The notes below the pieces were generated by a model. That model worked only from the letters and a program-made list of their open reading frames with translations. It searched no databases and was not told the origin of the DNA. This document shows, piece after piece, positions 33,743 through 47,557 of a stretch of DNA of 64,000 nt (position 1 is its first letter; each line of letters begins with the position of its first letter). The stretch covers positions 5,216,001 through 5,280,000 of the forward strand of contig CBDETK010000013.1 of assembly GCA_965242865.1 (NCBI GenBank), read 5' to 3'. Source of the stretch: Candidatus Latescibacterota bacterium (GTDB taxonomy: Bacteria > Latescibacterota > UBA2968 > UBA8231). Both the position numbers and the translations under genes were made by a program.

Positions 33743-34984
33743 ATGCTATACCGCATCGCCGCCATCGGCTTCATTTTTGCCGGCACGACCGTCGCTTGGC
33801 TCATCTTGGCGCAGGTCGTCTCCTACCGCACCCACCACCAAGACACCAAGCTCAAAGCGGCCGTGGGGCAATTGTGGGGCATCCCCCAATCCCAACTCGC
33901 TCCGCTCCTGTACTGGACCACCGAGGAAATCGTCGTCCAACCGGCCGCCGATGGCCCAGCGGTAGAGCACGTTAGGGAGCGGCGACACCTCCTGCCCCTA
34001 CAAGCGAGTCGCTTACAGGTCGATTTGCACCTCGAACACCGCCGCAAGGGCCTGCTGTGGTATCCCACCTATCAAGTGGCCCTAGACGCCACCTATACCG
34101 CGACCAACGCGACCGACCGACCCCTCGACCTGACCTTTGATCTAGCCCTGCCTAGTCCCCAAGCCGTGTACGACGATTTCACCCTGTCCCTCGACGGCCA
34201 ACCCAGCACCCCGCTGCCGCTGGCGGAAGGGCACCTGCGGCAGCCGTTGCACTTAGCGCCGGGCCAGAGCCGCCAAATCCGCCTTGCCTATCAATCGCAG
34301 GGGCTGGAACAATGGGAATACCGCTTCGGCGACCACGTCGAGCAAGTTTCCGACTTTGAGTTGACCATGCTCACGAATTTCGACGCCATTGACTTCCCGG
34401 GCCAAAGCCTGTCGCCCACCCACAAGGAGCGCACGGCCGACGGCTGGCGTCTCACCTGGCAGTACGATCGGCTGCTCACCGGGGCCGACCTCGGCATGGT
34501 CATGCCCGCCCGCCTCAACCCAGGCCCTTGGGTCCAAGACGTGACCGAGGCCGCTCCCATATCCCTCTTTCTCTTCTTCTTTGTGCTCTTCGTCTTCACC
34601 GCGGTCAAAGGCATTGATATTCACCCGATGAACTACTTCTTCATCGGCGCGGCCTTTTTCAGCTTCCACTTGCTGTTGGCCTATCTGGCCGACCACTTGC
34701 TCATCCACTACGCCTTTTTGGTAGCCGCGGCCGTGTCGGTTTTTCTAGTCGTCTCGTACATGCGGCTGGTGGTCGGCCTGCGGCTGGCCTTGGTGGAGGT
34801 GGGCTTGGCCCAATTCATTTACTTGGTCCTGTTCTCCTACACCTTCTTCTTTGTCGGCTACACCGGCTTGGCCATCACCGTCCTCTGCATCGCCACCCTG
34901 TTCGCTGCCATGCAGTTTACTGGCCGGATGGACTGGTCGGCCGCGTTTGCCCGGCCGCCGGCGTCGGCTCAGCAGTCCGAGTGA
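33743..34984 (+). CDS. CreD-like inner membrane protein
   Basis: N-terminal TM, periplasmic domain, C-terminal TMs with 'IHPMNY' and 'LLLAYLADH'. Confidence 0.75.
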   Translation: MLYRIAAIGFIFAGTTVAWLILAQVVSYRTHHQDTKLKAAVGQLWGIPQSQLAPLLYWTTEEIVVQPAADGPAVEHVRERRHLLPLQASRLQVDLHLEHRRKGLLWYPTYQVALDATYTATNATDRPLDLTFDLALPSPQAVYDDFTLSLDGQPSTPLPLAEGHLRQPLHLAPGQSRQIRLAYQSQGLEQWEYRFGDHVEQVSDFELTMLTNFDAIDFPGQSLSPTHKERTADGWRLTWQYDRLLTGADLGMVMPARLNPGPWVQDVTEAAPISLFLFFFVLFVFTAVKGIDIHPMNYFFIGAAFFSFHLLLAYLADHLLIHYAFLVAAAVSVFLVVSYMRLVVGLRLALVEVGLAQFIYLVLFSYTFFFVGYTGLAITVLCIATLFAAMQFTGRMDWSAAFARPPASAQQSE

Positions 34985-35624
34985 CGCCCCGCAACCGCGC
35001 CGACGCCTCCGTATCCAACAGATCCGTGCGGCCATCCGCCCCAATCGCACGAGCACCGAGTTTCAGCAGGTTCGCATTGGCGGGACTGTCGAGGGTGAGG
35101 AGGGGTTTGCCGGAGTCAGCAACCTTGCGGGCTAACTCCTCCGTCTTGCCAGCACGAGCGGCGTAGGCGATGAAAACCCGGCTAGCGAGCGTAACTACCA
35201 AGTCGTTTCGTTGGGCTGCCAGCTTTACCGTTGGACGGTGCTGCGACGGCGGGAAAGGCGACAGAACCAGCAGCCTTCGCTCGGCGATGGCCGGACGCCA
35301 GTCGCGGGGAACCCGCATGTTGTCAATGCTGCGAGCGGGGCATACCACGACGGGCTGGCTGCCTCGCAGCAACAGGCGCAGGCACTCCTTCTCCATGGGT
35401 GTCTGAAAGCCGCCTATTACGGGCGTCTTTGCCTCGCGCATGGCCCTCGCCAAATCGTAGGTCTTGAGGATTAGGTCGCCGGGGCAGCGGACGGAGCAGA
35501 AGAGTGCGGTGTGTTCCGAGTTGAGAATTTCGGGAGCACCGATAGCCCGCAAGCGAGGTTTGGACTTTGAGGGCAGCGGTTGGACCGCTAGCGTAGGAGT
35601 TGGGAACGACTGCATGTCTTGCAT
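34917..35624 (-). CDS. Short DprA/Smf-like (SLOG/Rossmann) protein
   Basis: 'ALFCSVRCPG', 'VIGGFQTPMEKECL..LLRG', 'AQRNDLVVTLA', 'GKTE'; C-terminus runs through the repeat into the creD-like gene. Confidence 0.75.
   Translation of the reverse strand: MQDMQSFPTPTLAVQPLPSKSKPRLRAIGAPEILNSEHTALFCSVRCPGDLILKTYDLARAMREAKTPVIGGFQTPMEKECLRLLLRGSQPVVVCPARSIDNMRVPRDWRPAIAERRLLVLSPFPPSQHRPTVKLAAQRNDLVVTLASRVFIAYAARAGKTEELARKVADSGKPLLTLDSPANANLLKLGARAIGADGRTDLLDTEASARLRGVTRTAEPTPAAGQTRPTSPSGQ
34968..35002 (+). repeat. Left 35-bp direct repeat bounding the defence island
   Basis: CTCAGCAGTCCGAGTGACGCCCCGCAACCGCGCCG; 34/35 identical to 46638-46672; contains the creD-like stop codon. Confidence 0.9.
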
Positions 35625-35642
35625 TAGGGAATGAATTGTAGA

Positions 35643-38600
35643 TCATCCGAGACGGAGCTCAACGGTGATTGCAGGTTTTCTCTTTTGTACCGTCTTCACC
35701 GCAGTGGCTACGATATTGCTTCCTGAGTCGATTTCAGGTGCTAGGCGTTGAGCCAGGCCCCGCGGGAGGAAGCCGACTTGCCCAGCCTTATGATGTACGG
35801 CGATGGCATTCGGATCTACAGGATTTTCATAATCTCGGCGCAGTTCAAGTTTATCTTCTGCTCTGACACGCCGCGCAGCTATCCAGCGGTTTTCGTAGGA
35901 TATTCCAACTACCTTCTCCTGAATAGGAAGAACTTCATGGAGCGGCCTAATTGGATTAAGTAGTGGATTGACAGCCATTCTTCCAAGTTTGTACCTGAGG
36001 TCGTTGAGTACATATCCAGTAACGCCATATTCCTGACGTAGGGAGTCGTCAGATACGCTAGACAGCCAAGTAACGAAATTCTCGTGAGAAGAAATATCCG
36101 AGACTTGCCCTTCAAAGCCTTCTGCCAATCTGCATGCAATATCCCGAGAAGTAATTCCTGCCGACATCGCCCACGAAGCCACAGGATCAGGAAGCCCATG
36201 CTTAACCATTGACGGATAGCATCGAATGTACTCCGACAGTTCTTGGATACCTAATGCCTCCTTGGAAATCCGAAACAGAGCGGAGATAATCCAAGGTAGT
36301 CGATATCCAAATAACTCTTCTATATATCCAGATATATCCTCTACAGAGTCCGCTATACTCCGTGTACTCCTAACGATTTCATTTATGGACGTTCCGTCCA
36401 ACCACAAACCAAGCAAAACCTCGGGATCACCTGCAAAATCGGTTACAGTCTGTGCCTCAGGCAAAGGAAGGCTCGCATCGAGCACTAAGCGGTTTAGGTC
36501 TTTGAGGCTATCGGAGCCGGCATTGAGAAGCAGGACACTCAACGTATCTGTGTGTGTGTCTGCGAATCTACTCAATGTTTCACAAGAGTAGCTGCTTAGA
36601 CCTGTCTGAGCATAAATTCGTCTCCATGATGCTTCAGGGGCTCGATCGAACACTTTCTCGGCAGCTAGTTGAGCGGATTTGACTAGCGGGTCAATATTTA
36701 TATTCTGAGTACGAGATTGCTGCGTTATATATGTTTTCTCCAAACTAGTGATCCATTCATAGGTGTTGGCAGCCTCAACCTCCTCTTCTACTGCAATAGC
36801 AAGTATCTCTGGATCTAGAGTCGCCGCAGCATTTTCTATCGCCTCATCGGAGATGCGCGAGGAGACGATTTGCTGGAGTAGTTGATATAGTGCGCCAGAA
36901 ACAGGCTCCAGATTCCCGATGTTTCCGTAGTGGTTGAAGTCCCTCCGATCCTTGTCATCCAGAGTTATGTGGACGACCAGTCCTTCTGTTTCCTGTCCTG
37001 CCCGACCAGCCCGACCAGCTATATTCCAGTAGTCCCGACTTGTAATTCGCCATTTCCGACGCTCTGCGTCTGTACGCCAGACGCTGTGTATTATCACGGT
37101 CCTGACAGGCAGGTTCACACCTTGAGCCAGCGTATTGGTCGCAACAATCACTTTGTAATGACCAGCACGACAGTCAATCTCAATAGCCTCTCGAACGACG
37201 TTAGGCAGCCGCCCGTGATGAGGGGCAACTCCTTGGGATAAGGCTTGTGTGACAATATGTTCTTCTCCCAACCACTCCTTTGCAAGTGCAAGAGATCTAG
37301 TCGTCTCTACACGGACAAAGTGGGGATGGACTGATTCCCCAGTTAGCTCCCTAAACCGGATCGATTTGTTGAGAATCGCGTCGCAAACACTCTCAACCCA
37401 TTTTCGTTGTGTACAGAAAACCAGAACAGGACCCTGCTCCGAAAATGTATATGCTAGTTCAGCAGCGGTATCTCCCTTAGTTAGTTTTGGGTACTTAGAG
37501 GTATTTGTGCGTCGGGTATCCTTGTTTATGAAACGGTATTGCTTCTGTGATATGGCTCCAGGAACAAATGAATCCAAATCTGAAATTTCTGAATTCCGCT
37601 CAAATAGGATTACGCCATTAGTACCTTGCCAATCAAATCGCGCTCGTCTTTGAATTGTTGGTCGCCAATCCGACATGACGGTTCTATCGGGAGAATTCGC
37701 AAGCCACGCGGCAAAGTCCTTTAGCGTCGAATCTGGGACCACGGCAGACATTACCAAGAAGCGAATCGTTGGCAATCTGTGCTTTATTCTGCTCAACAAA
37801 AGCTCGAACTTTATACCGCGACTTGCGTCATCCATGATGTGGACTTCATCTAGCACTATTAGCTTGATCTGATCTGATATGTCTGGCCGGAGGCGCAGAA
37901 CAAGGTCCAGCTTTTCGGGTGTAAGTATCAGCAAATCGGCTGTTTGTAGAAGAAATTCCTCGAATTCGTCCGACTCGTAAGAACCGATGACGACAGATGA
38001 AACTCGATAACCTAGGTCATTCAGTACCGATCCCATGCTCCTTTCAACTTCTGCTGCCAAAGCTCGATATGGAGCAACAAACACGCACTTGGCTTCGGGA
38101 TGCCGTTGAAGGGTGTCAATGATGGCCATTTCCGCTATGCGCGTCTTACCGCCGCTGGTGGGCAGGCGAACAACAGCACTGTCATCTGAACCTAAGAAGC
38201 CAGATTCAAGCACTTTTATCTGGGACGGCCACAGTTCAGTCACTCCCCTAGAGCGGGGCCTTGCAAGGAGAGTCAAGTAACGCTTCCACACTTCAGATTC
38301 TCTAGAATGGCCTTCAAGTTGAGACCAAGTGCTTCGCTTCATCATTAACGGAAGCACTGATTGAATTCCATACGCGATGTTAGAGTGCAATGGAGCACCG
38401 AGGCCGGTGAATACCTTAGTAGCCTCATCCAACAACTTCATTGCCTCATGATATGCCGATTGATCACCACTCAGGAAGAAACGGCACGCTTTGGATAACC
38501 CGTCTGCAAGAACGACTTCGCCCAACTCTAACGATAGAACATCTAAGGGCAGTTCAAGGTCTGGTGGGAACTGGAGGAGACGATTGGCAAGCTGCTCAGT

Positions 38601-39065
38601 GACAATTATCCTCCGTTGTATGAACGACGCGACAAGTGCCTGAGCATCCGCCCTCGAATCGGGTTGCGGATCGGGCAAGACTTCCTTAGCGAGGTATGCT
38701 GCGTTGGCTTGATAGCCTGCAAGTTCGTATGCTAGAGCAGCGTTGAGTAAGGCGATTGGTCTTGTTACTCCCTCGTCCAGTCTAGCCAGACTTTCCCATG
38801 CGAGCGCTAGTTGGCGCGAGTGTTTCTCATTTTCGACAGCATAGTTCGGATCAGCAAGGGTCCCCGCCTCAAGCGCGTACAAAGCAGCGGCTGAATTTCG
38901 AGCAAAGCGGTTTGCAACATAAGTCCAGTGAGGAGATCGCTGAAGCTCGCCTATGGCCTGCAATGTTGCCTTCGACCTAACCTGAGCCAGTTCGCTCTGG
39001 AATCCTCGGTCGGCCAACAAAGCCTGCATACGAAATTGCAAATCAATATGATTGTCATTGGTCAT
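35643..39065 (-). CDS. Ski2-like DEAD/DEAH helicase, Hachiman HamB-like, with C-terminal HIRAN domain
   Basis: 'LPTSGGKT', 'TPEKLD', 'DEVH', 'SAV', 'TLAQGVNLP', 'AGRAGR'; HIRAN 'VVGISYE...LELRRDYENPVDPNAIAV...QVGFLPR'. Confidence 0.85.
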   Translation of the reverse strand: MTNDNHIDLQFRMQALLADRGFQSELAQVRSKATLQAIGELQRSPHWTYVANRFARNSAAALYALEAGTLADPNYAVENEKHSRQLALAWESLARLDEGVTRPIALLNAALAYELAGYQANAAYLAKEVLPDPQPDSRADAQALVASFIQRRIIVTEQLANRLLQFPPDLELPLDVLSLELGEVVLADGLSKACRFFLSGDQSAYHEAMKLLDEATKVFTGLGAPLHSNIAYGIQSVLPLMMKRSTWSQLEGHSRESEVWKRYLTLLARPRSRGVTELWPSQIKVLESGFLGSDDSAVVRLPTSGGKTRIAEMAIIDTLQRHPEAKCVFVAPYRALAAEVERSMGSVLNDLGYRVSSVVIGSYESDEFEEFLLQTADLLILTPEKLDLVLRLRPDISDQIKLIVLDEVHIMDDASRGIKFELLLSRIKHRLPTIRFLVMSAVVPDSTLKDFAAWLANSPDRTVMSDWRPTIQRRARFDWQGTNGVILFERNSEISDLDSFVPGAISQKQYRFINKDTRRTNTSKYPKLTKGDTAAELAYTFSEQGPVLVFCTQRKWVESVCDAILNKSIRFRELTGESVHPHFVRVETTRSLALAKEWLGEEHIVTQALSQGVAPHHGRLPNVVREAIEIDCRAGHYKVIVATNTLAQGVNLPVRTVIIHSVWRTDAERRKWRITSRDYWNIAGRAGRAGQETEGLVVHITLDDKDRRDFNHYGNIGNLEPVSGALYQLLQQIVSSRISDEAIENAAATLDPEILAIAVEEEVEAANTYEWITSLEKTYITQQSRTQNINIDPLVKSAQLAAEKVFDRAPEASWRRIYAQTGLSSYSCETLSRFADTHTDTLSVLLLNAGSDSLKDLNRLVLDASLPLPEAQTVTDFAGDPEVLLGLWLDGTSINEIVRSTRSIADSVEDISGYIEELFGYRLPWIISALFRISKEALGIQELSEYIRCYPSMVKHGLPDPVASWAMSAGITSRDIACRLAEGFEGQVSDISSHENFVTWLSSVSDDSLRQEYGVTGYVLNDLRYKLGRMAVNPLLNPIRPLHEVLPIQEKVVGISYENRWIAARRVRAEDKLELRRDYENPVDPNAIAVHHKAGQVGFLPRGLAQRLAPEIDSGSNIVATAVKTVQKRKPAITVELRLG

Positions 39066-39831
39066 CCTCAACTACCTCCACGCCAAGATTTGAAAATGCC
39101 GCGTCAGCGAGTTGCCTAAGATCAGTGATTCTTGCAACGTACACATGGAGAGGTTCAAGGCCGCGATTTTCGTCTTCAAGATTTATGAGAATTTGCTCAT
39201 CCCAAGTGGCCTCTTCATGTAGGAGCACTAAGAGAAATTCATCTAGCTCAGCTTCACGATTAAAAATATAGTCTTCGATCAATTTCGTAAGAGGATTATT
39301 TGTTTCTCGCAGTTGTCGAGCCACAAAGGCCAAGGTTTCAGAATTCGCGCTATCCGCATCTTGCTGTAGCTGCTTTGTCCCTTGGACAGCTACAGCTGGA
39401 TCCTTAGTAGTGCGAAATTTAGATTCGACGAACGCTACCTTGACGAGCTTATTGTCGGAAAATCGAAATGCGATACAGTCGGTTCCGGGTAAAGTCTGAT
39501 TCGCACTCATTTTGTACCTGAGCTTTATCACAGGGATATGATAGCCTTCCACGGTCTTGAGATATTCGACGGTTAGGGCTTCCCCAAAATCGCCGCGCCT
39601 CACTGAGGACCGAGTATCGGAACGCGACCTAAGAAATTTGTCGCGAACTTTCCCGTATCCGTATCTATCTGCTACATCGGCGAGGTAGTCAGTGCCCCAA
39701 TACGAGTCTCTCATAAGATCGGCCAATTCAGTAGGCGACGGCACTGAGTTGGTCTCTTTAACGTCAGTGACCTCAAACGAAAAGTTAGAACCTGTTCGTG
39801 GAATCGGCTTTAGCCAGTTAGTTATATTCAA
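39055..39831 (-). CDS. Hachiman HamA-like (DUF1837) nuclease-fold protein
   Basis: 'RRGDFGE...IPVIKLRYK..ANQTLPGTD...VESKFR' fits the HamA GE..K..D..ExK pattern; overlaps the helicase start. Confidence 0.75.
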   Translation of the reverse strand: MNITNWLKPIPRTGSNFSFEVTDVKETNSVPSPTELADLMRDSYWGTDYLADVADRYGYGKVRDKFLRSRSDTRSSVRRGDFGEALTVEYLKTVEGYHIPVIKLRYKMSANQTLPGTDCIAFRFSDNKLVKVAFVESKFRTTKDPAVAVQGTKQLQQDADSANSETLAFVARQLRETNNPLTKLIEDYIFNREAELDEFLLVLLHEEATWDEQILINLEDENRGLEPLHVYVARITDLRQLADAAFSNLGVEVVEDDQ

Positions 39832-39867
39832 GGTGTCCCCCCGGGAGAACTCTACGGAGCCTAGCGA

Positions 39868-42800
39868 TCACTTGTCAGCTCGTTCCTGTTTATCCTCAAA
39901 AGAAGTCCTAACGACTAGCGAATGCTCTAGTTCTATTTCTTCCCACAAGTCGCTTAGCCCCAACGCTTCCAGCCATATCTTATCCGTTCGGTCAGTAATG
40001 TGACGACAACGAGCCAAGTTGAAGTTTCCTATATTCTTTCCTGCATTCAACTTAAATACTAAGTTTTCATTCATTGCATTCTGCAATTCCGGTAGAGAGG
40101 TTAAGAGACGCTTTTGTTGGCGTCCATTAAGTTGTCTTGGCCCGAACGGGGCACTTGTGAAGCTGTTCTGGGTTACGTGAAAATCATCTCCTACAGCTAT
40201 CCACCATACGAACATTATCAAGCTGTTCCCAAGAAGCATGATCAGATCTCTGTTGTCTTGCTGAAGAAATCGGACAGTTCCGTACTGAGTCTGACTTATA
40301 GGGCGAGCACCCGCACCAAATGCCGGAGGCTGCTTTACACAGAAAGTCAGCCAATTATAGGCGGTCTGCTTGAAGTGAAGAGGGTATCCTTCATTACGGC
40401 GGTGAGACAGCTCGTTCCTGAGCCGATAATCGCCACCCTCCAGTAGAGCCTCGATACTCTGCAACAGGCGGGCACTACCTATTTTAGGAACCAGTCCCTC
40501 GAACGCCTCTGGAGAGAAAACAGAGTACCACAGACGGTCAAATAACGCTGGCCGCTCGGAGTCGAACCATCGATGTAGTCGCGTAGTGAAACAACGTCTA
40601 GGCGATTTGGATGATTTATGCCCCAAGAATATCGTGTTGCGAACTCGGGTATCGAAGCTGAAAAGAGCAGATGGAATTCTTCCAAAAGATGCGAACCAAC
40701 TGAGACCGCAGTCTTGATAAAGAAGCAATCTCAGATCGGCAAAATCCGAGCTGAAGGTCAAGCTGAGTGGTACTATCATGCTGATACGTCCGTTGGCTCC
40801 GCATAAACTGAGGCTTCTCTCAACAACCATGGCGTATATATCTGGACACACTGCCGTGCGGAATCCTTTCGTGGTATATGACTCGCTCACTTTTCGTTTC
40901 GACACATACGGCGGATTCCCAACAATCACGTCAAATCCACCCCTGTGCATGACATCGTAGAACTCGACGAACCAGTGGAAGGGCTGGTGGCTGGTACGCC
41001 ATTTCTGGTAGGCAGTCTCGTCGTCAGGTTTGACGCCGTACTCGGTCGCTAAGTAGCTATCCAGCTCGCCTCGTAATCCATCAAGCCGCTCCCGCAGTTC
41101 GACCTTCGCCGCTGCAAAATCCCCCGCGTCCATGCCTTCCACCGTCTGCATACGCTGAAACATACGAAAGGCTTGGGCCGCAATCTCAGCGCGTTCCTCA
41201 ATGTCCGGCAGGGCCAACTGCTTGATCAGGTCGCCACTCAGCGTCTGTCGGATTTCCTCCAGCGAAGTAAACCCAACCAATGTGTTGCCGGGGCGGATGT
41301 TGAAATCAATGTCTGGCAGTGGCTCGATCTGGTCGTAGGTCTCCAACTGAGCGACCAACTTGAGAAACAAACGCAGCTTACATATCTCGACCGCCTCTTC
41401 CATGATGTCCACGCCGTACAGATTGTTGAGCACGATGGACTTGAGGATGAAATACCGGGAGCTGGGATGCTTCTTGACCTCCTCTAAAACGTCCCTGAAG
41501 TCGCTGAGTGTTTTTGGATGATGGGGCCGCTCTGATCGCTCAAGATCGTCGCGAAAGCCCTGCATTCCTTCCAGACATGCTGTGTAGAGCGGTTCGAGGA
41601 TATTGAGCGCGGCGAACAGGAACGCGCCAGAGCCGCACGTGGGGTCGAGCACGGACACATCGCGCATCCCATGCCAAAACGCACGCAAAAGCTCCGGCCC
41701 TTCGCTCTGGACGATGACATCCTTTGCGAATTGTTCGATGTCCAAGTTCAGAGTGATGAGGTCGTTGACGTTTTGAACCTTGCCCGAGGCGAGTTGCTCG
41801 CGGACTTCGGCGTATCGCTGGCGGCGAGCCACCACCTCGCGCCAAGTTTCGGTAGGAAGCGCGTATTCGTCAGCAGCCGGAGTGTTCCATCCGCCCCGCT
41901 TGGACACGTCATCGATTCCCGCGGCGATCTCCTCCGGTAACTCAATGGGCTGTTCTAAACGCTCGGGATCGACATCCGGTGAGTATCTCCAAGCCACTCC
42001 GTGCGCCACAGCGGGGTAGATGTACCGATCGGGATCGTCCTGCAAGAGCCGCCACACGCCGCCATCCGGCAGGAACGCCACCGGGCATTTCTTTTTGGCA
42101 GCGTCGAAGAGGAATGGGATGACCGTGTTTCGGGTGATATAGCCGGTGATGTCCTCCTTGGTGTAATAGGCCCCCATCTGCTTCTGATTGATGTACTTCT
42201 CGAAAATGTATCCGAGAACGTCGGGATTGATCTCGTTGTCTTCCCCGCGAGACCGCTCGTCTAGGTGCCAGCGGTAGCCCTCAAAGAAGGCGAACACCCT
42301 CTCGAATGCCTCGTCCGGGATACTGATGTCGGGGTTGTCGCGCTCCAAGTCGTGAACATCGAACAGGCCGCCGTTGAGGAACGGCACCTTGCCCAGCAGC
42401 GCCGCTAGCTCGGGTGCTCTTTCGGATTCCGGCTGTCCCAGCCCTTCGTGGAACAGCCGCAGCAGGAAGATGCGGTAGAACTGTTGGAACCGCCCGGCCC
42501 CGCCTTCTGTCTGTTGTACCATGTGCAGACGGTTGCGGAGATAGTCGGTGTCATCATCAAGGAAACCCTGCTTCTGGACGAAGTAGATGAACATCATGCG
42601 ATTGAGCATCAGGGATGCGTACCACTCCCGGTCCCCCTGCTCGGTGATGCCGTCGATAAAGCCTTGGAATGCGTCGAGTTCCTTCCTGAATCGCTCGTAG
42701 AACTGCTTGGTGACCTTTTCGACATCCATCGCCTGTCGGACCCGTGACGCGACCTTGGTGACGCTGAGCCCCTCTTCGCTTTCTAGGCTAAACGCGATTG

Positions 42801-43203
42801 TCTGAAGGATTTGTAGGAGACGATTGCCCTGCTGACCGCTGCGATACGGTTCCTCGCGGCAGGCGTCGGGCTTGCCACGCTCTCGCTTGACCCACTGCCA
42901 GACTTGGAGAGTGTGTTCGGCGTCGATGAAGATGATAATATGTTCGAACGCCAGCTTGGCGACTTGGCGTTCTATCTTTCGTCTGATCGGGTACGATGGG
43001 ACTGAGCCATCGGCATCCGCGCCGCAGACATAGACGACGAAACTAGCCTTCTCCGCCACAGGTTCCAGCGCGTAGTCATGCCCGTCCAGCGAGATCCGTA
43101 CCGATTCGGCCTCGTAGTGGTTCCACCCTAAGCCTTCCACAAGGAGGCTTCGGAAGTCAAAGCTGTGGAGGTATGGGCGAAGTTGATCGGTATCTGCTTG
43201 CAT
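39868..43203 (-). CDS. Large N6-adenine DNA methyltransferase (Eco57I-like MTase plus TRD)
   Basis: 'PFLNGGLF', 'LGYIFE', 'GAYYT', 'DPTCGSGAF', 'VGNPPY'; low-GC C-terminal TRD region. Confidence 0.9.
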   Translation of the reverse strand: MQADTDQLRPYLHSFDFRSLLVEGLGWNHYEAESVRISLDGHDYALEPVAEKASFVVYVCGADADGSVPSYPIRRKIERQVAKLAFEHIIIFIDAEHTLQVWQWVKRERGKPDACREEPYRSGQQGNRLLQILQTIAFSLESEEGLSVTKVASRVRQAMDVEKVTKQFYERFRKELDAFQGFIDGITEQGDREWYASLMLNRMMFIYFVQKQGFLDDDTDYLRNRLHMVQQTEGGAGRFQQFYRIFLLRLFHEGLGQPESERAPELAALLGKVPFLNGGLFDVHDLERDNPDISIPDEAFERVFAFFEGYRWHLDERSRGEDNEINPDVLGYIFEKYINQKQMGAYYTKEDITGYITRNTVIPFLFDAAKKKCPVAFLPDGGVWRLLQDDPDRYIYPAVAHGVAWRYSPDVDPERLEQPIELPEEIAAGIDDVSKRGGWNTPAADEYALPTETWREVVARRQRYAEVREQLASGKVQNVNDLITLNLDIEQFAKDVIVQSEGPELLRAFWHGMRDVSVLDPTCGSGAFLFAALNILEPLYTACLEGMQGFRDDLERSERPHHPKTLSDFRDVLEEVKKHPSSRYFILKSIVLNNLYGVDIMEEAVEICKLRLFLKLVAQLETYDQIEPLPDIDFNIRPGNTLVGFTSLEEIRQTLSGDLIKQLALPDIEERAEIAAQAFRMFQRMQTVEGMDAGDFAAAKVELRERLDGLRGELDSYLATEYGVKPDDETAYQKWRTSHQPFHWFVEFYDVMHRGGFDVIVGNPPYVSKRKVSESYTTKGFRTAVCPDIYAMVVERSLSLCGANGRISMIVPLSLTFSSDFADLRLLLYQDCGLSWFASFGRIPSALFSFDTRVRNTIFLGHKSSKSPRRCFTTRLHRWFDSERPALFDRLWYSVFSPEAFEGLVPKIGSARLLQSIEALLEGGDYRLRNELSHRRNEGYPLHFKQTAYNWLTFCVKQPPAFGAGARPISQTQYGTVRFLQQDNRDLIMLLGNSLIMFVWWIAVGDDFHVTQNSFTSAPFGPRQLNGRQQKRLLTSLPELQNAMNENLVFKLNAGKNIGNFNLARCRHITDRTDKIWLEALGLSDLWEEIELEHSLVVRTSFEDKQERADK

Positions 43204-46200
43204 CAGGCACCCCCTCTGTCTGTGTCAAAGAGTCCCAAGGAGCAGATGATTCGCGGTTCCTGGACCTCAGCGGTGTCCCTGTCCGTTACGCACAGCCGGT
43301 CATCGTTCCACAAGGCAATGACTATATCGGCAAGTTGAGCGTTGTCAATTCCACTGCGGAGCTGCCGATTTAAGGTATCGACTGCTGATTGGCGAAGGGG
43401 ATGCCGGTAAATGTCGTCGAGGGCCTTGTGTAATGAGTCAGTGTCAAACAACAGGCCCTCAATGTCGTCCGCGTACTCTTTGAGTCGGGTATAGGTGCGG
43501 AAACGTGCGCCGGAGGGCTGCCCAAGCTGGCCGCCGATTCTCTTCTCCACTTTCGCGATGTGCTTGACACCAGCGGCGACGAGTTGGTGGTGGCTATCGT
43601 GATGAGGTTGCGCGGAGGTTTCCGGCCTGCACTCTGCGGCGGAGAGGATTTCGAGTTGGGATTCGGTGATGCTCTCGCCGTTTCTGCCAACGTATGCGAG
43701 GGCGTCGTTGCCGTCTGCCGTGCGCGTGAAAACGAGGACTCCCTCCGGGCGCTGCGCGATGGGCGTGTGCTGCCGCGATGAGAACACCACGTCAGGTAGC
43801 CCAGAGATGGCTTTCTCTAGTGTTGGATCCGCGCTAATGGCGTTCTTCCATATCTGGTAGGCATAAGACGCGAGATCAACCTCGCCATCGGGGTCGCCAT
43901 CGAGAATGCCGGCCCGCTCGTGGTAGAGATTGAGAATGGTCTGATCGTCGGCCTCATCCTCGAAGAACACCTCGTCCGCGCCGACGACCTCAGCGTTTTC
44001 TTGGAGGCGCGACTTAACTCGGTTCCGAAGGTTGATAATGCGTTCGACGCCTTCGGCTGGCAGAAACGAGTAGCAAAGTATCTCCTCGGCCTGCTGGCCA
44101 ATGCGGTCAACTCGCCCAGCACGCTGGATTAGCCGGATAATGGCCCACGGCAAGTCGTAGTTCACGATTATCGAGCAGTCTTGGAGGTTTTGGCCTTCGC
44201 TCAACAGATCGGTAGAGATGACGATCCTAAGTTCTCGTTCTGGCTTAATCACGTCCTGCTTCTCGTTGCTCACCGGACTAAAACGCCACGCTATCTCCGC
44301 CGGGTTGGGCGAGTCCCCGGTAACACCTGTCATCGCTTCTACGCCCTTGCGCTCAAGCTGGCCTTCGAGATAACGGACGGTGTCGGCGAATTGGGAGAAA
44401 ACAAGCACCTTCTTGTCTGGAAAGGTCTCTATCAGGAGCTTCTGGAGAGCTTTCAGCTTGGCATCGTGCGCCGGGTTCCAATTTCCATATCTCTGGAGCA
44501 CTTGTAGGAGGGCGTCAATGTCCGACTGGAGATCGGCCTCTAATGCCTTGCCGAAAAGGTCGGGACGGAGCCAGCTAAAGCGTTTTTTGTAGCGTTTTGA
44601 ATACTCTGCGTACCCTTCGGCGGCCCGAGCCTCAAAATCGGGTGCAGTCCAAGACCCCACCTCTGTCGCTGCCGAATCTCCGACTTGGATCTCTTGCTGG
44701 TCGTCGTCAGGATCGAACATGCTTCCTTGTGCTTGGTCTATATCGGAATCGGTGAACCTAGAATCAAGCATTTCGGCATCCTGTGTACCAATCGGTAGCG
44801 GAAGGCCATTCCGAACTGCATGAAGGAATACGCAGTTCCGCAGGATGTGCCGATTCACAGACTGCAAGAAGGCCCAGCCACTGCTTTCGAGACGCTTGAA
44901 CAGATTTATCCGGCAGAACCCTATGAGCCGTTTCCCCGCTCGCGAGAGATTCTGGATGTGCTGTTTCTCCGTTGACGATGGGGGAATCGCCGGTGAATCA
45001 GCCACGTACGTACCTAGTCCGTATCGCGGCAGACTCAACGCACCGATAACATCAACCACAGCTTGGGAGTATAGTTTGGCGTACCGGTCTGTAGGGTCCG
45101 ACTCGTCAATGGTGAACTTGATGGTCTTAGGAACGCGAGTTGGGAAAAACGACTTGCTTCCGTCCTCGTAGGTCAGGTACTTCCGACTTGTCTCGGCATC
45201 GGTTTCGGCGTAGTTGTCTTGGATGAAGCTGCGCGTCCGTCGCACCATGTACAAGCGCATCAGGTCACGCCAATCATCGGCGTATTCACTGAATTCAAAA
45301 GCCGCAAGCGTTCGCGGGTTCGCTTGGTGCGTAGCACTAAAATTGACCTCGCCCAGGTCTTTGAGGAGTTGCTCCGGGCGAACGCCAAGATCCTGCTCTC
45401 CATCGACGAAGAGGCGTAGCTGGCTGGACAAGTCGAGATAGGTCTTGTTATACGGAGTCGCCGATAGCAAGATGCACTTGCTGTCGTTCTCTTGGATGTA
45501 TTCCTGTATCGCCCGGTATCGCTTGCCGCTTTTGTTGCGGAGGTTGTGGCTCTCATCAATGAGGACCAACCGATAGCGGCGGATCTTGGGCAACTCGCCG
45601 ATTACCTTGCTGAGCGAGAGAACCTGCGCCCTTAGACGGTACTGGTGTGCGTAATCCTCCCACATGCTCACGAGATTCTTGGGGCAGATTATCAGGGTCT
45701 CCAGTCCGTAGTCGTCCTCGAAGATACGGGCGACCGCCGTGGCCATCAGCGTCTTGCCAAGCCCAACCACATCGCCGATTAGGACGCCGCCGCGCTTGTT
45801 CAGGTGGAGAGCCGCTATCTTCACTGCGGCGGTCTGGAAGTCGAACATGCGGTTCCCGAAGTCTCGGGGAATCTGGAACTCGGCGAGACCTGCCCGAGCC
45901 TCGTGAGACAGGTGATAGGCCATTTTGAGATAGACCCAGTACGGTGGTATCAGATCCTGCCGTGCCCAACTCTCCTCGATAATTTTGATCAACTCTTCGG
46001 TGATGTCCATGCAGAACTTGTCGGTCCACCTATCTTCAAACCACTTGCTCAGCTTCTTACAGGCGTCTTGATCGAGCACATCCACGTTGAGTTCACCTTG
46101 GCCTGAAAGCCCCGCGAAGGTAAGATTGCTGCTGCCAAGATACCCCACCACGGGACTAACGGGATCGGAGCGAAAACACAGGTATAGCTTTGCGTGAAGT

Positions 46201-46607
46201 GGGTGCCTGAGAAAGAGTTTGACCGCTACTTTGCCAGCCCTGAGCTGGCTGACCAGTCGTTGCAAGGCGGCTTCGTCGTTGTTTGTCGGTACACCAGTCA
46301 CCAACTGATCGCGAAACTCTTCAGCGCAACGCTGTTTCAGGCGAATCGCGGCTTGGTTGTCAATGCCCCGATTATCCAGCGGACTGAACATTTCGCGGAG
46401 CTCGTCATGTGGAAGCCTGTGCATACCCACCAGCACACGTGCTTGGTTGCCTTCCGGCCAGCGCTCTATGTATGAGTCAATGTTCTTCCATCCGCGCAAG
46501 TTGAAGTATCCGACGCAGAAGTCTGCGCGAGCGGACAGCCCTAGAGTCGTCTGGAGAACGGGCAGAAGAGTGGAGTCAGGCGTCAGGTTGTCGAGAATTT
46601 GCGGCAT
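43203..46607 (-). CDS. PLD-nuclease plus SNF2-family helicase
   Basis: 'LHAKLY...GSSNLT' PLD motif; 'DVVGLGKT', 'DESH', 'SATP', 'SEGQNLQ', 'QRAGRVDR'; TGATG coupling to the MTase. Confidence 0.9.
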   Translation of the reverse strand: MPQILDNLTPDSTLLPVLQTTLGLSARADFCVGYFNLRGWKNIDSYIERWPEGNQARVLVGMHRLPHDELREMFSPLDNRGIDNQAAIRLKQRCAEEFRDQLVTGVPTNNDEAALQRLVSQLRAGKVAVKLFLRHPLHAKLYLCFRSDPVSPVVGYLGSSNLTFAGLSGQGELNVDVLDQDACKKLSKWFEDRWTDKFCMDITEELIKIIEESWARQDLIPPYWVYLKMAYHLSHEARAGLAEFQIPRDFGNRMFDFQTAAVKIAALHLNKRGGVLIGDVVGLGKTLMATAVARIFEDDYGLETLIICPKNLVSMWEDYAHQYRLRAQVLSLSKVIGELPKIRRYRLVLIDESHNLRNKSGKRYRAIQEYIQENDSKCILLSATPYNKTYLDLSSQLRLFVDGEQDLGVRPEQLLKDLGEVNFSATHQANPRTLAAFEFSEYADDWRDLMRLYMVRRTRSFIQDNYAETDAETSRKYLTYEDGSKSFFPTRVPKTIKFTIDESDPTDRYAKLYSQAVVDVIGALSLPRYGLGTYVADSPAIPPSSTEKQHIQNLSRAGKRLIGFCRINLFKRLESSGWAFLQSVNRHILRNCVFLHAVRNGLPLPIGTQDAEMLDSRFTDSDIDQAQGSMFDPDDDQQEIQVGDSAATEVGSWTAPDFEARAAEGYAEYSKRYKKRFSWLRPDLFGKALEADLQSDIDALLQVLQRYGNWNPAHDAKLKALQKLLIETFPDKKVLVFSQFADTVRYLEGQLERKGVEAMTGVTGDSPNPAEIAWRFSPVSNEKQDVIKPERELRIVISTDLLSEGQNLQDCSIIVNYDLPWAIIRLIQRAGRVDRIGQQAEEILCYSFLPAEGVERIINLRNRVKSRLQENAEVVGADEVFFEDEADDQTILNLYHERAGILDGDPDGEVDLASYAYQIWKNAISADPTLEKAISGLPDVVFSSRQHTPIAQRPEGVLVFTRTADGNDALAYVGRNGESITESQLEILSAAECRPETSAQPHHDSHHQLVAAGVKHIAKVEKRIGGQLGQPSGARFRTYTRLKEYADDIEGLLFDTDSLHKALDDIYRHPLRQSAVDTLNRQLRSGIDNAQLADIVIALWNDDRLCVTDRDTAEVQEPRIICSLGLFDTDRGGA

Positions 46608-46631
46608 GGCTTGGGCTGTCTTGGAATAAAG

Positions 46632-47531
46632 CTACTCCTCAGCAGTCCGAGTGACGCCCTGCAACCGCGCCGGCACCCCCACCGGCACTCCGCCGCGACA
46701 CACCACCGGAAAGTGCGGGCCGGCCTCGGCCATGGGCGCGCCGTCGGGCAAATCGACGAACTGCTTCATCAGGTGCTCGCCGCTTTGATCAAAACGCGCC
46801 GCGCCGGTCATGTAGTGGATGGCAATGGCGCGCCGGGGCCGGTGCGACTGATTGAAGGGCGAGCCGTGCCAAGTCAGGGAATGATGGAAGGAGACTTCCC
46901 CGCGCAACACCGGCCACGGCCGAGCCTCAACCTCGTCAATCTCGGCGTCGGCGGGCGGGGTAAAGCCCTGCAAGTCCTTGAAGTTTTCCAACAGCGACAA
47001 ATTGCCCTGCGTGCGCAAAAACGCAATCTGGTTGCCCCACTTGTGGCTGCCGGGCACCATCCACATACAGCCGTTGTCCTCGGTCGCGTCGTCCAAGGGA
47101 ATCCACGCCGAGACCGGCGTCATCGGCTTGATGATCGGCCACAAGGGCGCGTCTTGGTGCCAGTAAGTGGAGCCGCCGTAACGGGCGGGTTTGTACTGGA
47201 TCTGGTCGTGCCAGACCATGAGGTCGTCGTGGCCGGTGAGTTGGCTGATCCCGCGGACGACGGCCGGGTGGTAAATCAGCCGCTCCCAAGCCGGCGCAGC
47301 TTCCCAGATATTGACAATCTGCCACACCGGATGCTCGCTGACGCCGGCCCCGCCGGCTAGGTCGCGGAAGGATACTGGCCGCGCCTCGCCCACGGCAAAG
47401 CCGTCCGGGCCTTTGGCCAAAATTTCGTCGAGCGCGTCGCTCAATTCGCCTAATTCCTCGTCGGAGAGCACGCGCCCGCCGTTGAGAAAGCCGTTGCGGT
47501 GGAATGCGTCAATCTGTGCTTGTGCGAGCAT
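46632..47531 (-). CDS. Phytanoyl-CoA dioxygenase family protein
   Basis: 'WHQD', 'WIPLDDA..DNGCMWMVPGSH', 'HHSLTWHGS', 'RRA'. Confidence 0.9.
   Translation of the reverse strand: MLAQAQIDAFHRNGFLNGGRVLSDEELGELSDALDEILAKGPDGFAVGEARPVSFRDLAGGAGVSEHPVWQIVNIWEAAPAWERLIYHPAVVRGISQLTGHDDLMVWHDQIQYKPARYGGSTYWHQDAPLWPIIKPMTPVSAWIPLDDATEDNGCMWMVPGSHKWGNQIAFLRTQGNLSLLENFKDLQGFTPPADAEIDEVEARPWPVLRGEVSFHHSLTWHGSPFNQSHRPRRAIAIHYMTGAARFDQSGEHLMKQFVDLPDGAPMAEAGPHFPVVCRGGVPVGVPARLQGVTRTAEE
46638..46672 (+). repeat. Right 35-bp direct repeat bounding the defence island
   Basis: CTCAGCAGTCCGAGTGACGCCCTGCAACCGCGCCG, inside the 3' end of the PhyH gene. Confidence 0.9.
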
Positions 47532-47557
47532 CGTCCATCCTTTCGGGGTAAAGCGTC

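Follow-up and report, generated by a model that had tools for sequence, protein, structure and literature searches.

A conserved restriction-like gene trio and its probable Hachiman cargo in a genomic island of Candidatus Latescibacterota

An 11.7-kb low-GC island in the genome of a Candidatus Latescibacterota bacterium is filled by five intact minus-strand genes, which encode a PLD-SNF2 protein, an N6-adenine methyltransferase (MTase), HamA, HamB with a HIRAN domain and a DprA-like protein. This island is very probably composed of a conserved restriction-modification (RM)-like trio, formed by the PLD-SNF2, MTase and DprA-like genes, and an autonomous Hachiman pair, which is carried as swappable cargo in a slot of the trio. 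No published name for the trio was found in the literature, although the supplementary tables of the embedding and MANTIS preprints cited below may list it. An earlier note on this DNA had read the five genes as one layered system. Its gene identities were borne out by Pfam and PADLOC, and its account of five open reading frames (ORFs) on one strand was borne out by the ORF coordinates and junction sequences, while the single five-part system is not supported, as HamA and HamB were found in none of 80 metagenome loci and none of 20 loci of the phylum that were compared. A tightly packed operon need not be one machine.

The island and its genes

The DNA studied is a window of 64,000 nt (assembly GCA_965242865.1, contig CBDETK010000013.1, positions 5,216,001-5,280,000 of the forward strand). 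The island is inserted precisely at the 3' end of a PhyH gene between 43-nt direct repeats whose copies, located by a repeat search, are 91% identical (34968-35010 and 46638-46680), which confirms the earlier description of a repeat-bounded island. That the insertion is precise follows from an empty site in the congener G019, which aligns to both island flanks with a 35-nt overlap. The GC content is 0.48-0.59 within the island and ~0.65 outside. The features of the island and its flanks are as follows.

33743-34984, strand not given: CreD-like gene, its end overlapped by the left repeat
34917-35010, minus strand: read-through tail of the DprA-like ORF, outside the family, crossing the left repeat into remnant host DNA
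34968-35010, no strand: left 43-nt repeat, which is the former PhyH 3' end and overlaps the CreD-like gene at its end
35011-35624, minus strand: DprA-like single-domain protein, native part, aa 1 to ~205 (alignment, AlphaFold, Foldseek)
35600-40950, minus strand: low-GC block (~0.48) holding the post-NPPY part of the MTase, HamA and HamB (GC; boundaries recur in other loci)
35643-39071, minus strand: HamB, Ski2-like helicase, 1142 aa from a TTG start, with an alternative ATG at 39065 (PADLOC, solved relative)
35682-35915, minus strand: HIRAN domain in HamB, spanning aa 1053-1130 (PF08797 in Pfam scored 41 bits; cut-off 24.7)
39055-39831, minus strand: HamA, DUF1837 nuclease, 258 aa (Pfam, PADLOC, alignment to solved HamA)
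39868-40914, minus strand: C-terminal part of the MTase after NPPY, aa 764-1111, first part of the low-GC exchange block
39868-43203, minus strand: MTase, whole gene, 1111 aa, Eco57I-type
40915-43203, minus strand: conserved part of the MTase, aa 1-763 (motifs, alignment, predicted complex)
43203-46607, minus strand: predicted PLD(HKD)-SNF2 nuclease/translocase, 1134 aa (Pfam, PADLOC, conserved motifs)
46632-47660, minus strand: intact PhyH gene, its 3' end holding the right repeat
46638-46680, no strand: right 43-nt repeat, the 3' end of the intact PhyH gene (repeat search, empty-site overlap)

The five genes are the only ORFs of at least 230 aa in the island, and their successive junctions measure -1, 36, -11 and 18 nt. 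A promoter and terminator scan, which is uninformative for this phylum, returned 12 promoter-like sites against an expectation of 6.6 ± 2.5, and nothing convincing as an internal terminator. A link of the island to an integrase or a tRNA was considered and rejected, as Pfam found no integrase domain among the five proteins and no tRNA was found in the window.

The first gene encodes a protein with PLDc_2, SNF2-rel_dom and Helicase_C domains (Pfam). Its single HKD motif (H138-x-K140), GSSN at residue 158, Walker A motif GLGKT at 282 and DESH at 351 are kept across 63 aligned homologues. It has no close solved relative by sequence, and it gives partial matches to the NCBIfam models DrmD and phospholipD_antiphage, far under their cut-offs, and to the PADLOC PLD_Helicase model. 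Its -1 junction with the MTase gene is a TGATG stop/start overlap, and the two genes are translationally coupled. The MTase has DPTCGSGAF (motif I) at aa 520 and its NPPY motif at aa 763; it matches Pfam Eco57I and MmeI_Mtase and, in part, DrmMI and NCBIfam PglX, and no solved relative was found by sequence. From about aa 880 onward, identity to the window sequence drops to 0.18-0.30 among 71 sequences, and this hypervariable region is presumed to be the target-recognition domain.

Several known systems resemble parts of this set. MANTIS (formerly Gao_RL; Type-2 BREX-related), with the genes MtsABCD, is described as an N6-adenine MTase with a dimeric HKD/PLD nuclease-SF2 helicase-like ATPase that restricts unmethylated DNA (bioRxiv 10.64898/2026.09.23.753747). 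The pairing of an MTase with a PLD nuclease-helicase recalls genes 1 and 2. However, MANTIS needs MtsA (a DUF499 AAA+ protein) and MtsB (a small DUF protein) and has no DprA-like subunit. Neither MtsA nor MtsB is in the island, no such conserved family occurs in the 80 related loci, and gene 1 matches far under the family cut-off (141 bits vs 1100). Class 1 DISARM (DrmD SNF2, DrmMI, DrmA, DrmB, DrmC PLD) likewise brings together SNF2 helicase, PLD nuclease and N6-adenine MTase functions, whereas here PLD and SNF2 form one polypeptide, the DrmD match reaches 128 bits against a cut-off of 610, and neither DrmA nor DrmB (YprA helicase and DUF1998) is the best match of any of the five ORFs. Type ISP and type IIG-L enzymes and PglX/BrxX share a large gamma-class N6-adenine MTase with a C-terminal recognition domain, but in the island the motor and nuclease lie on a separate polypeptide, of PLD rather than PD-ExK type, and there are no BREX core genes; the BrxC/PglY ATPase and PglZ are absent, and PglX models reach at most 80 bits against cut-offs of 400-900. 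For want of their defining partners, DISARM, BREX, MANTIS and BREX-related systems were all rejected as classifications of the island. The earlier note was right in saying that the five genes correspond neither to canonical Hachiman nor to DISARM.

The core trio and its variable slot

Conservation of the trio was assessed in a metagenome set made up of the best 80 of 466 matches, near-duplicates included, so that the counts are not independent. PLD-SNF2 lies directly upstream of the MTase on the same strand in 48 of the 49 loci that contain a complete MTase start and at least 3.6 kb of upstream sequence. Downstream of the MTase and on its strand, the DprA-like gene occurs in 37 of all 80 loci; where at least 6 kb of downstream sequence is available the count is 22 of 28, and where at least 9 kb is available it is 14 of 20, the remaining 6 of these 20 being without it. 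Within the phylum, its profile has hits in 44 of 168 genomes. A reverse search starting from the DprA-like protein recovered PLD-SNF2 and the MTase upstream in 17 of the 20 loci fetched and no partners in the other three. The DprA-like gene is therefore a usual, not an obligatory, member of the trio. Gene order and strand are fixed in loci from many environments, and all-against-all clustering of the genes from the 80 loci disclosed no further widely shared family. The window fits this pattern, with the three genes in order on one strand and HamAB in the variable stretch.

This stretch between the MTase and DprA-like genes ranges from 104 to 8884 nt in metagenome loci and from 516 to 9376 nt in loci of the phylum, and the ORFs within it are mostly on the operon strand (61/71 and 40/49 cases). 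A Pfam scan of its contents identified DarTG, CBASS parts, Gabija-like pairs, GmrSD, MTaX1-HNH, PIN and others, together with several conserved occupants that have no Pfam match. HamA and HamB occur in 0/80 MTase-bearing metagenome loci and in 0/20 loci of the phylum fetched via the DprA-like protein, and the slot itself holds them in 0/97 cases. The count of the co-occurrence of all five families, which the earlier note had proposed as a check, thus marks the Ham pair as sporadic cargo. The slot could be mined for defence genes not yet known.

When loci are compared in pairs, nucleotide homology breaks off at MTase aa 761-764 for 17 of 24 pairs, and for 36 of 38 pairs it sets in again between -19 and +31 residues relative to the start of the DprA-like protein. 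In the window, GC shifts coincide with both of these boundaries, with a drop at ~40950; homology to G146 ends at 35629, and that to the congeners G001 and G023 at 35571. As judged from these alignments, the exchanged unit, newly delimited here, extends from the NPPY motif of the MTase to the start of the DprA-like gene. The homology break at NPPY shows where the alleles become unrelated; it does not locate the crossover. A swapped unit of this extent would include the host's own DNA-recognition domain, and specificity and cargo would change in one step.

Nesting of defence genes within other defence systems has precedents. [quoted passage not shown] The slot genes of the trio are similarly of defence type and follow the operon orientation. 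In contrast to these systems, the host is none of those four, the slot takes in the recognition domain of the host MTase, and its right border is the DprA-like gene. With the trio, the known defence systems that host other defence genes would number five.

The Hachiman pair

HamA and HamB (genes 3 and 4) make up a genuine type I Hachiman pair; the two genes overlap, and the catalytic motifs are in place. HamA matches Pfam PF08878 with 45.8 bits (cut-off 25) and PADLOC HamA1 with an E value of 3.1e-23, and aligns to solved HamA 8vx9_A (E 1.2e-6), with GTDCIAF facing GEDVIGI and ESK facing EAK, so that the D and ExK columns agree. The D118 ... E136-S-K138 residues of this motif are presumably catalytic. 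HamB lies directly adjacent, overlapping HamA by 11 nt with the ATG at 39065 and by 17 nt with the TTG start; it matches PADLOC HamB1 (E 5.7e-127), its best solved relative is HamB 8vx9_B (2.4e-60), and motifs I (GGKT at 307) and II (DEVH at 408) are intact. The pair differs from type I Hachiman in the C-terminal HIRAN domain of HamB and in its location within another system's operon. HIRAN domains bind 3' ends. A literature search for Hachiman with HIRAN turned up no discussion of the fusion.

The nearest HamAB-HIRAN pairs outside the genus are in five Chloroflexota loci (66-70% amino acid identity), and none of these five has PLD-SNF2, MTase or DprA-like genes within 10 kb. Within the genus, G001 and G023 have kept HamAB alone at the same PhyH site, along with a decayed 5' stub of the DprA-like gene and the island's upstream spacer, having retained HamAB after loss of the core. 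In G013 the same five-gene arrangement occurs with proteins ~20% diverged from those of the island, and the arrangement was already present in the shared ancestor.

These observations bear on the layered system of the earlier note, in which an RM-like module would cut unmethylated DNA and Hachiman would answer the resulting ends or serve as an abortive backup. The single strand and close spacing of the five genes, as well as the ancestral arrangement shared with G013, speak for it. Hachiman is, moreover, reported to be activated by DNA damage, with 3' single-stranded DNA (ssDNA) entering HamB proposed as the trigger (PMC12278908), and a HIRAN domain on HamB would suit end-sensing. Against this stand the absence of HamAB from the 80 and 20 other core loci, the many unrelated, self-contained systems that occupy the slot, the close HamAB-HIRAN relatives that occur without the core, and the persistence of HamAB in G001 and G023 without it, and an integrated system is for these reasons considered unlikely. 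HamAB as autonomous cargo that is merely co-transcribed is the most likely reading, and selected co-operation with the core may nevertheless exist, given the tight coupling of the genes and their joint persistence over ~20% divergence. The HamB-HIRAN fusion agrees with the published idea that Hachiman senses 3' ssDNA and could help to test it.

The DprA-like protein and a possible mechanism of the trio

The DprA-like ORF as called spans 34917-35624 and encodes 235 aa. The final ~27 residues, which start with ARLRGVTRTAE at aa 209, are a copy of the PhyH C-terminus and of host DNA, and the relatives of the protein end at ~200-217 aa in the alignment. Since the left repeat lies inside the ORF and the relatives are shorter, the native gene ends near 35011 rather than at 34917. 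The protein has CPG at residue 47, GGFQTPMEKECLRLLLRG at 71 and RN at 139. It scores 27.8 bits against Pfam DNA_processg_A, just below the cut-off of 29.6, and its sole PADLOC match is PsyrA (5e-14, profile positions 118-296 of 398). An AlphaFold model with a pLDDT of 85.8 (>95 for aa 21-200, 56-66 for aa 200-235) gave Helicobacter pylori DprA as the top Foldseek hit (E 3.9e-11, TM 0.64-0.70), followed by ShosA 8zva (E 1.4e-8) and other SLOG families (~1e-4), and a profile search of the PDB matched DprA at 1.6e-4. The modeled structure thus has the DprA fold, a Rossmann-like domain of the SLOG superfamily. A canonical competence DprA was rejected on the basis of 19.6 bits against 191 for TIGR00732, the Pfam score below cut-off, and the single domain of ~205 aa.

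Two lines of evidence connect this protein with the MTase. In 8 of 17 longer proteins, picked from the best 150 family representatives, the DprA-like domain is fused to an MTase-like scaffold that has no NPPY, the fusion proteins measuring 688-770 aa; no such fusion was found in the 168 genomes of the phylum. In addition, the predicted complex of MTase 450-1111 with DprA-like 1-205 scored 0.79, compared with 0.31 for the best control. Of 157 solved complexes, 116 attain this mark, as do 2 of 215 mismatched pairs, a calibration that holds only roughly because own alignments were used here. At least 95% of contacts agree between runs, and partner pLDDT is at least 82. The predicted interface joins the invariant MTase residues F682, Q686, K700 and L703, in a helical stretch (aa 670-703) that forms the predicted seat, with the family-specific CPG and PMEKECL motifs of the DprA-like protein. 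Binding of the DprA-like protein to the MTase is accordingly a prediction of structural modeling. The fold is familiar from competence and from two defence pairs of toxin-antitoxin type; an MTase-bound subunit would place it in a new setting and would assign to a DprA-fold protein a testable role in a restriction-like system.

The two defence pairs, PsyrTA and ShosTA, raise the alternative that the DprA-like protein belongs to Hachiman as an accessory, acting as an antitoxin of the PsyrA or ShosA kind that restrains HamB, in which case a three-gene Hachiman would lie beside a two-gene RM module. The gene begins just 18 nt past HamB, PsyrA is the partner of a RecQ-like helicase, and ShosA is described as a DprA-like antitoxin whose dimer binds ssDNA and RecA (PMC12961424). 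PsyrA and ShosA share with the island protein a DprA fold in a defence context. The island protein differs in being a single domain without the SAM and C-terminal domains and in its predicted partner, and the island has neither a RecQ-like PsyrT, which the definition of PsyrTA calls for, nor a phosphoribosyltransferase (PRTase) ShosT. An accessory role was rejected on genomic context and is exceedingly improbable: 37 and 17 loci pair the DprA-like gene with PLD-SNF2/MTase in the absence of HamAB, the five Chloroflexota HamAB-HIRAN loci have no DprA-like gene, and both the fusions and the predicted interface involve the MTase. These gene contexts place the DprA-like protein in the PLD-SNF2/MTase module, not with Hachiman.

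The fusions and interface also bear on whether the MTase could be a solitary type IIG-like RM enzyme, with PLD-SNF2 and DprA-like genes as mere conserved neighbours in a defence island. Its match to the PADLOC REase_MTase_IIG model, a REBASE-derived 'type IIG' model, is extensive (aa 8-907, E 7.6e-289). Yet no nuclease family was found in the MTase by Pfam, nor a conserved D..ExK in its N-terminal domain among 71 sequences, and these missing matches and motifs hint that it lacks a nuclease domain. The fixed order and strand of the trio across many environments, the translational coupling of genes 1 and 2, and the ties of the MTase to the DprA-like protein make a solitary enzyme very improbable.

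Returning to the trio as an RM-like system with swappable cargo, we infer all of its enzymatic roles from the observed gene content, conservation, slot boundaries, fold and natural fusions. The MTase would mark host sites, and PLD-SNF2 would act as an ATP-driven cutter of unmarked DNA, probably dimerising to form one HKD site. The DprA-like protein, seated on the MTase helical stretch, would most likely supply an ssDNA-binding function by which the complex is gated or guided. The cassette from NPPY to the DprA-like gene would be swapped between related systems by recombination in conserved arms.

DprA is the factor that hands incoming ssDNA to RecA. A more speculative extension, which is decidedly doubtful, considers the trio as a self-diversifying platform. 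The MTase core (to NPPY) and the DprA-like gene would serve as arms for RecA-dependent exchange of 'recognition domain + cargo', the MTase-riding DprA-like protein would promote capture, and the integrase-less island would move likewise, as a circular molecule that uses homology to integrate at the 3' end of PhyH. If true, the system would encode its own specificity switch and a means to gain new defence genes.

Operon layout and conservation of the trio

The operon comprises the following five ORFs.

34917-46607, minus strand: genes 1 to 5
Gene 1, 1134 aa: PLD-SNF2 protein (PLDc_2, SNF2-related and Helicase_C); top PADLOC model 'HKD+Snf2' C3a139, 6.5e-47
Gene 2, 1111 aa: MTase, an Eco57I/MmeI-type N6-adenine methyltransferase; PADLOC REase_MTase_IIG, 7.6e-289, aa 8-907
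Gene 3, 258 aa: HamA (family scan)
Gene 4, 1142 aa: HamB with a C-terminal HIRAN domain, aa 1053-1130 (family scan)
Gene 5, 235 aa: DprA-like protein; DprA match below threshold; PADLOC PsyrA, 5e-14

The arrangement and junctions described in the earlier note were all reproduced: the stop codon of gene 1 overlaps the start of gene 2 (TGATG), 36 nt separate genes 2 and 3, genes 3 and 4 overlap by 11 nt, counted from the ATG at 39065, and 18 nt separate genes 4 and 5. Judging by this spacing, the host operon and its cargo are likely co-transcribed. The catalytic motifs of the four enzymes (genes 1-4) are all intact. HIRAN domains bind DNA ends, and that of HamB may contribute end binding.

The trio of PLD-SNF2, MTase and DprA-like protein is a real and widespread unit. 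A search of metagenome contigs with the MTase returned 466 relatives, and the best 80 of these 466 loci were analyzed, with near-duplicates among them causing the counts to overstate independence. Of the 49 loci in which 3.6 kb or more of sequence precedes a complete MTase start, 48 have a PLD-SNF2 gene (55-72% amino acid identity) directly 5' of the MTase gene and in the same orientation. Downstream, a DprA-like gene (38-66% amino acid identity) is present on the same strand at 37 of the 80 loci, at 22 of the 28 with at least 6 kb and at 14 of the 20 with at least 9 kb of downstream sequence. Clustering of all genes called in the best 80 of 466 loci gave no wider families other than a PLD-SNF2/MTase cluster (79), the DprA-like family (29, by ORF calling), a protein of ~311-384 aa encoded right after the MTase (9), a small Mrr_N protein (9) and a PLD/NgoFVII-like protein (4). 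Conversely, 44 of 168 phylum genomes matched a profile built from 28 DprA-like sequences (alignment A1) at E ≤ 1e-15. Twenty of these places were retrieved with ~17 kb upstream of each, and PLD-SNF2 and MTase genes accompany the DprA-like gene on the same strand in 17, the exceptions being loci L141, L157 and L159. The window's own genome contains a second, diverged trio on the same contig, ~1.2 Mb away (L140:9417-17533), in which PLD-SNF2, MTase and DprA-like protein are 63, 52 and 50% identical to their window counterparts at the amino acid level and the slot between the MTase and DprA-like genes holds a 137-aa PIN gene; this genome presumably runs two trio systems with differing specificities.

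The earlier note had proposed a five-gene layered system, in which Hachiman responds to, or backs up, the restriction-like module. This proposal is not supported, since the trio is conserved without HamAB: neither HamA nor HamB scored above 45 bits at any of the best 80 of 466 metagenome MTase loci, and HamAB was found at none of the 20 phylum loci retrieved through the DprA-like gene. A HamB search of genome contigs gave 14 loci, among them five from Chloroflexota (66-70% identity) that encode HamA and HamB, including the HIRAN end, and lack the trio genes within 10 kb of HamAB. One of these pairs follows a type I HsdR gene, and another adjoins a serine recombinase and an IS481-type transposase. 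The five genes amount to a conserved restriction-like system of three genes that carries Hachiman as its cargo. The trio, as far as literature searches go, has no published name.

The HsdR-linked setting also includes M78 peptidase/DUF4411. Chloroflexota HamAB-HIRAN cassettes (L014:6083-13444, L011:5666-13450 and L015:17182-21137) have a GC content of ~0.52 in genomes of 0.57-0.63, and L015 contains a second Hachiman-like pair at a distance of 4 kb.

Slot contents and the exchanged unit

The distance from MTase to DprA-like gene is 104-8884 nt (median 1565) in the metagenome loci (best 80 of 466) and 516-9376 nt in 17 phylum loci. Of the slot ORFs reaching 100 aa, 61 of 71 in the metagenome set (best 80 of 466) and 40 of 49 in the phylum set share the strand of the operon; slots without any such ORF number 6 of 37 in the former (best 80 of 466) and 1 of 17 in the latter. 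The occupants, as named by Pfam, are PLD/NgoFVII-like, Mrr_N, GmrSD, DarT with Macro, SMODS with Cap17-like, an OLD-type ATPase-TOPRIM protein with or without UvrD helicase, AbiJ-like, AbiU2, Schlafen, RES, RhuM/Fic, TIR, PIN and HEPN/nucleotidyltransferase proteins, a STAND NTPase, a radical SAM protein, an SDH protease and IS transposases, while several slot ORFs have no Pfam match. An MTaX1-HNH gene (~330 aa) stands immediately 3' of the MTase gene in 8 of 17 phylum loci, and also in L055, and is possibly a fourth component that the system often includes; the window lacks it, and HamAB occupies its place. Some loci have another, smaller slot between PLD-SNF2 and MTase, occupied by PIN, AbiEi/AbiEii (opposite strand) or PDDEXK_3 genes.

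Examples of slot genes in fetched metagenome and phylum loci (L numbers)
L144:13700-14692 and seven more phylum loci; L055:8046-9035; L141:16185-16973: MTaX1-HNH
L033:13440-14594; L041:6955-8079; L045:13322-14434; L143:3767-4897: ~370-385-aa protein following the MTase
L149:7083-8577; L155:7373-9587; L152:13411-14954; L156:13081-14380: second slot

Of the proteins of ~311-384 aa clustered at 9 loci (best 80 of 466), a form of ~370-385 aa without a Pfam match recurs right after the MTase at several loci and is a candidate for an unknown accessory or defense gene.

Across 71 aligned MTases, the C-terminal region beginning at about aa 880 is reduced to 0.18-0.30 identity with the window protein; the conservation of PLD-SNF2 is even along its length. 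Borders were mapped by pairwise nucleotide comparison of the 17 phylum loci. Homology entering the MTase gene (85-94%) ends at aa 761-764 in window numbering, at the NPPY motif (aa 763-766), in 17 of 24 pairs and continues through the MTase and MTaX1-HNH genes in the remaining 7. In 36 of 38 pairs it restarts near the beginning of the DprA-like gene, between -19 and +31 residues from the start. Within the window, GC steps coincide with both borders (~40950, at MTase aa ~751, and ~35600), and homology ends at 35629 in comparison with the related genome G146 and at 35571 with G001 and G023. On these comparisons, the MTase segment after NPPY, including the presumed recognition domain, moves together with the cargo. 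The homology break itself marks the onset of unrelated alleles, not the position of a crossover.

The DprA-like protein and a proposed mechanism

Invariant motifs of the DprA-like family are CSxxCPG, GGFxSPMExECLxxLLRG and RNxxVAALAD (alignment A1). The structural model of the window protein has a mean pLDDT of 85.8, exceeding 95 over aa 21-200, and its top match is Helicobacter pylori DprA (E 3.9e-11, TM 0.64-0.70), with the DprA proteins of S. pneumoniae and R. palustris also matched, followed by ShosA (1.4e-8) and then other SLOG families (~1e-4). A profile comparison with PDB sequences agrees weakly (DprA 1.6e-4, ShosA 0.007). Among 1.84 billion representatives, the family profile matched 5305 at E ≤ 0.001, 2508 at ≤ 1e-10 and 776 at ≤ 1e-30. 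Seventeen longer proteins were picked from the best 150 representatives, and eight of them, 688-770 aa in length (P0012, P0026, P0060, P0065, P0068, P0071, P0101 and P0105), are fusions in which an MTase N-domain and MTase core (window aa ~470-763) precede a DprA-like domain at the C-terminus; the (N/D/S)PP(Y/F/W) motif occurs in none of these eight. Two other architectures of ~450 aa (P0007, P0078) have an N-terminal half without family assignment.

Complex prediction for MTase aa 450-1111 and DprA-like aa 1-205, using our own alignments (A3 and A1), supports binding between the two proteins. The score was 0.79 (best of three controls, 0.31). Among solved complexes, 116 of 157 reach that mark, against 2 of 215 among mismatched pairs, a calibration that is rough since our own alignments were used. 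Contacts agreed by at least 95% between runs, with partner pLDDT of at least 82, and the predicted interface places MTase residues 670-703 against DprA-like residues 45-60 and 76-87, taking in invariant MTase residues (F682, Q686, K700 and L703) and DprA-like family motifs, with C47-P48-G49 and E78 on the DprA-like side.

Starting from the observed gene content, order and conservation, slot borders, fold and fusions, a most likely division of labor may be proposed. From knowledge of its family, the MTase would methylate adenine in sites recognized by its C-terminal domain. PLD-SNF2, with one HKD motif per chain, would dimerize to form a nuclease site and spend ATP on reaching or processing unmethylated DNA, by analogy with MtsD of MANTIS, reported as a dimeric HKD nuclease and ATPase acting on unmethylated DNA (bioRxiv 10.64898/2026.09.23.753747). 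More tentatively, the DprA-like protein could ride on the MTase and add single-stranded DNA binding that gates methylation or restriction, as the analogy with DprA and ShosA suggests (PMC12961424). A Hachiman in the slot would act as published for Hachiman, in which HamB is described as sensing damaged or 3' single-stranded DNA, with release of the HamA nuclease (PMC12278908).

Among described systems, MANTIS/Gao_RL and class 1 DISARM come closest; membership in either was rejected, their defining partners being absent. BREX-related systems are reported to center on DUF499 (PMC12839542). PbeA is described as another HKD-SF2 fusion, belonging to a different system, and MTaX1 as a methylase-associated domain that is possibly a reader of modified DNA (both in PMC10853773). 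[quoted passage not shown] The NPPY-to-DprA exchange unit, the MTase-like~DprA-like fusions, the predicted interface and a decay series at one chromosomal site are additions of the present analysis.

The insertion site and its state in congeners

The island has a GC content of 0.48-0.59 in surroundings of ~0.65 and is bounded by a 43-nt direct repeat with 91% identity (34968-35010 and 46638-46680). The right copy forms the 3' end of a gene of the PhyH family, and the left copy, adjoining a convergent CreD-like gene, is the former PhyH 3' end. An empty-site congener matches both flanks with an overlap of 35 nt, and the insertion is therefore precise. The DprA-like ORF lacks a stop codon of its own and reads on across the left repeat in the frame of PhyH; its relatives terminate at ~200-217 aa, and the extra tail is low-confidence in the model. 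The family scan found no integrase domain among the island's five proteins, and the 64-kb window contains no tRNA.

PLD-SNF2 starts only 24 nt (46608-46631) after the stop codon of PhyH, which lies on the same strand; in G013 the corresponding distance is ~200 nt. The operon may be transcribed by read-through from PhyH. Lying 2.5 kb off the island and unrelated to it, 29522-32353 (minus strand) encodes a 943-aa protein with repeated ASH/HYDIN-type Ig-like domains.

Both flank genes were located in 40 relatives, and on a single contig in 17 congeners. They abut in ten of these (G019, G022, G005, G002, G010, G003, G009, G012, G004 and G008) and enclose inserts of 1.6-5.9 kb in six (G001, G023, G013, G007, G011 and G014); the remaining one, G021, is ambiguous and was excluded from both groups. 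G013 carries a deleted copy of the island, retaining PLD-SNF2 aa 1-416 (92%), HamB aa 305-1142 (79%) and DprA-like aa 1-202 (85%). The inserts of G001 and G023, with a GC content of 0.47-0.50, encode HamA (74-76%) and HamB (79-81%) only. Their DNA homology corresponds to window 35571-39838, a span that takes in ~54 nt at the 5' end of the DprA-like ORF; this 5' remnant is interrupted by in-frame stops. The spacer 5' of hamA and the one that precedes PLD-SNF2 in G013 share 74% identity. From these sequence features, both inserts are read as deletion derivatives that retain Hachiman alone. At the same place, G146 has a DprA-like gene with 92% identity; upstream of it lie an MTaX1-HNH remnant, an MTase fragment and IS transposases. 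The G007 insert encodes four secreted NHL-repeat/T9SS-tail proteins and no defense genes. The CreD/PhyH junction (loci L023-L028) is a recurrent insertion site of the genus, with PhyH 3' duplications of 43, 141 or 208 nt.
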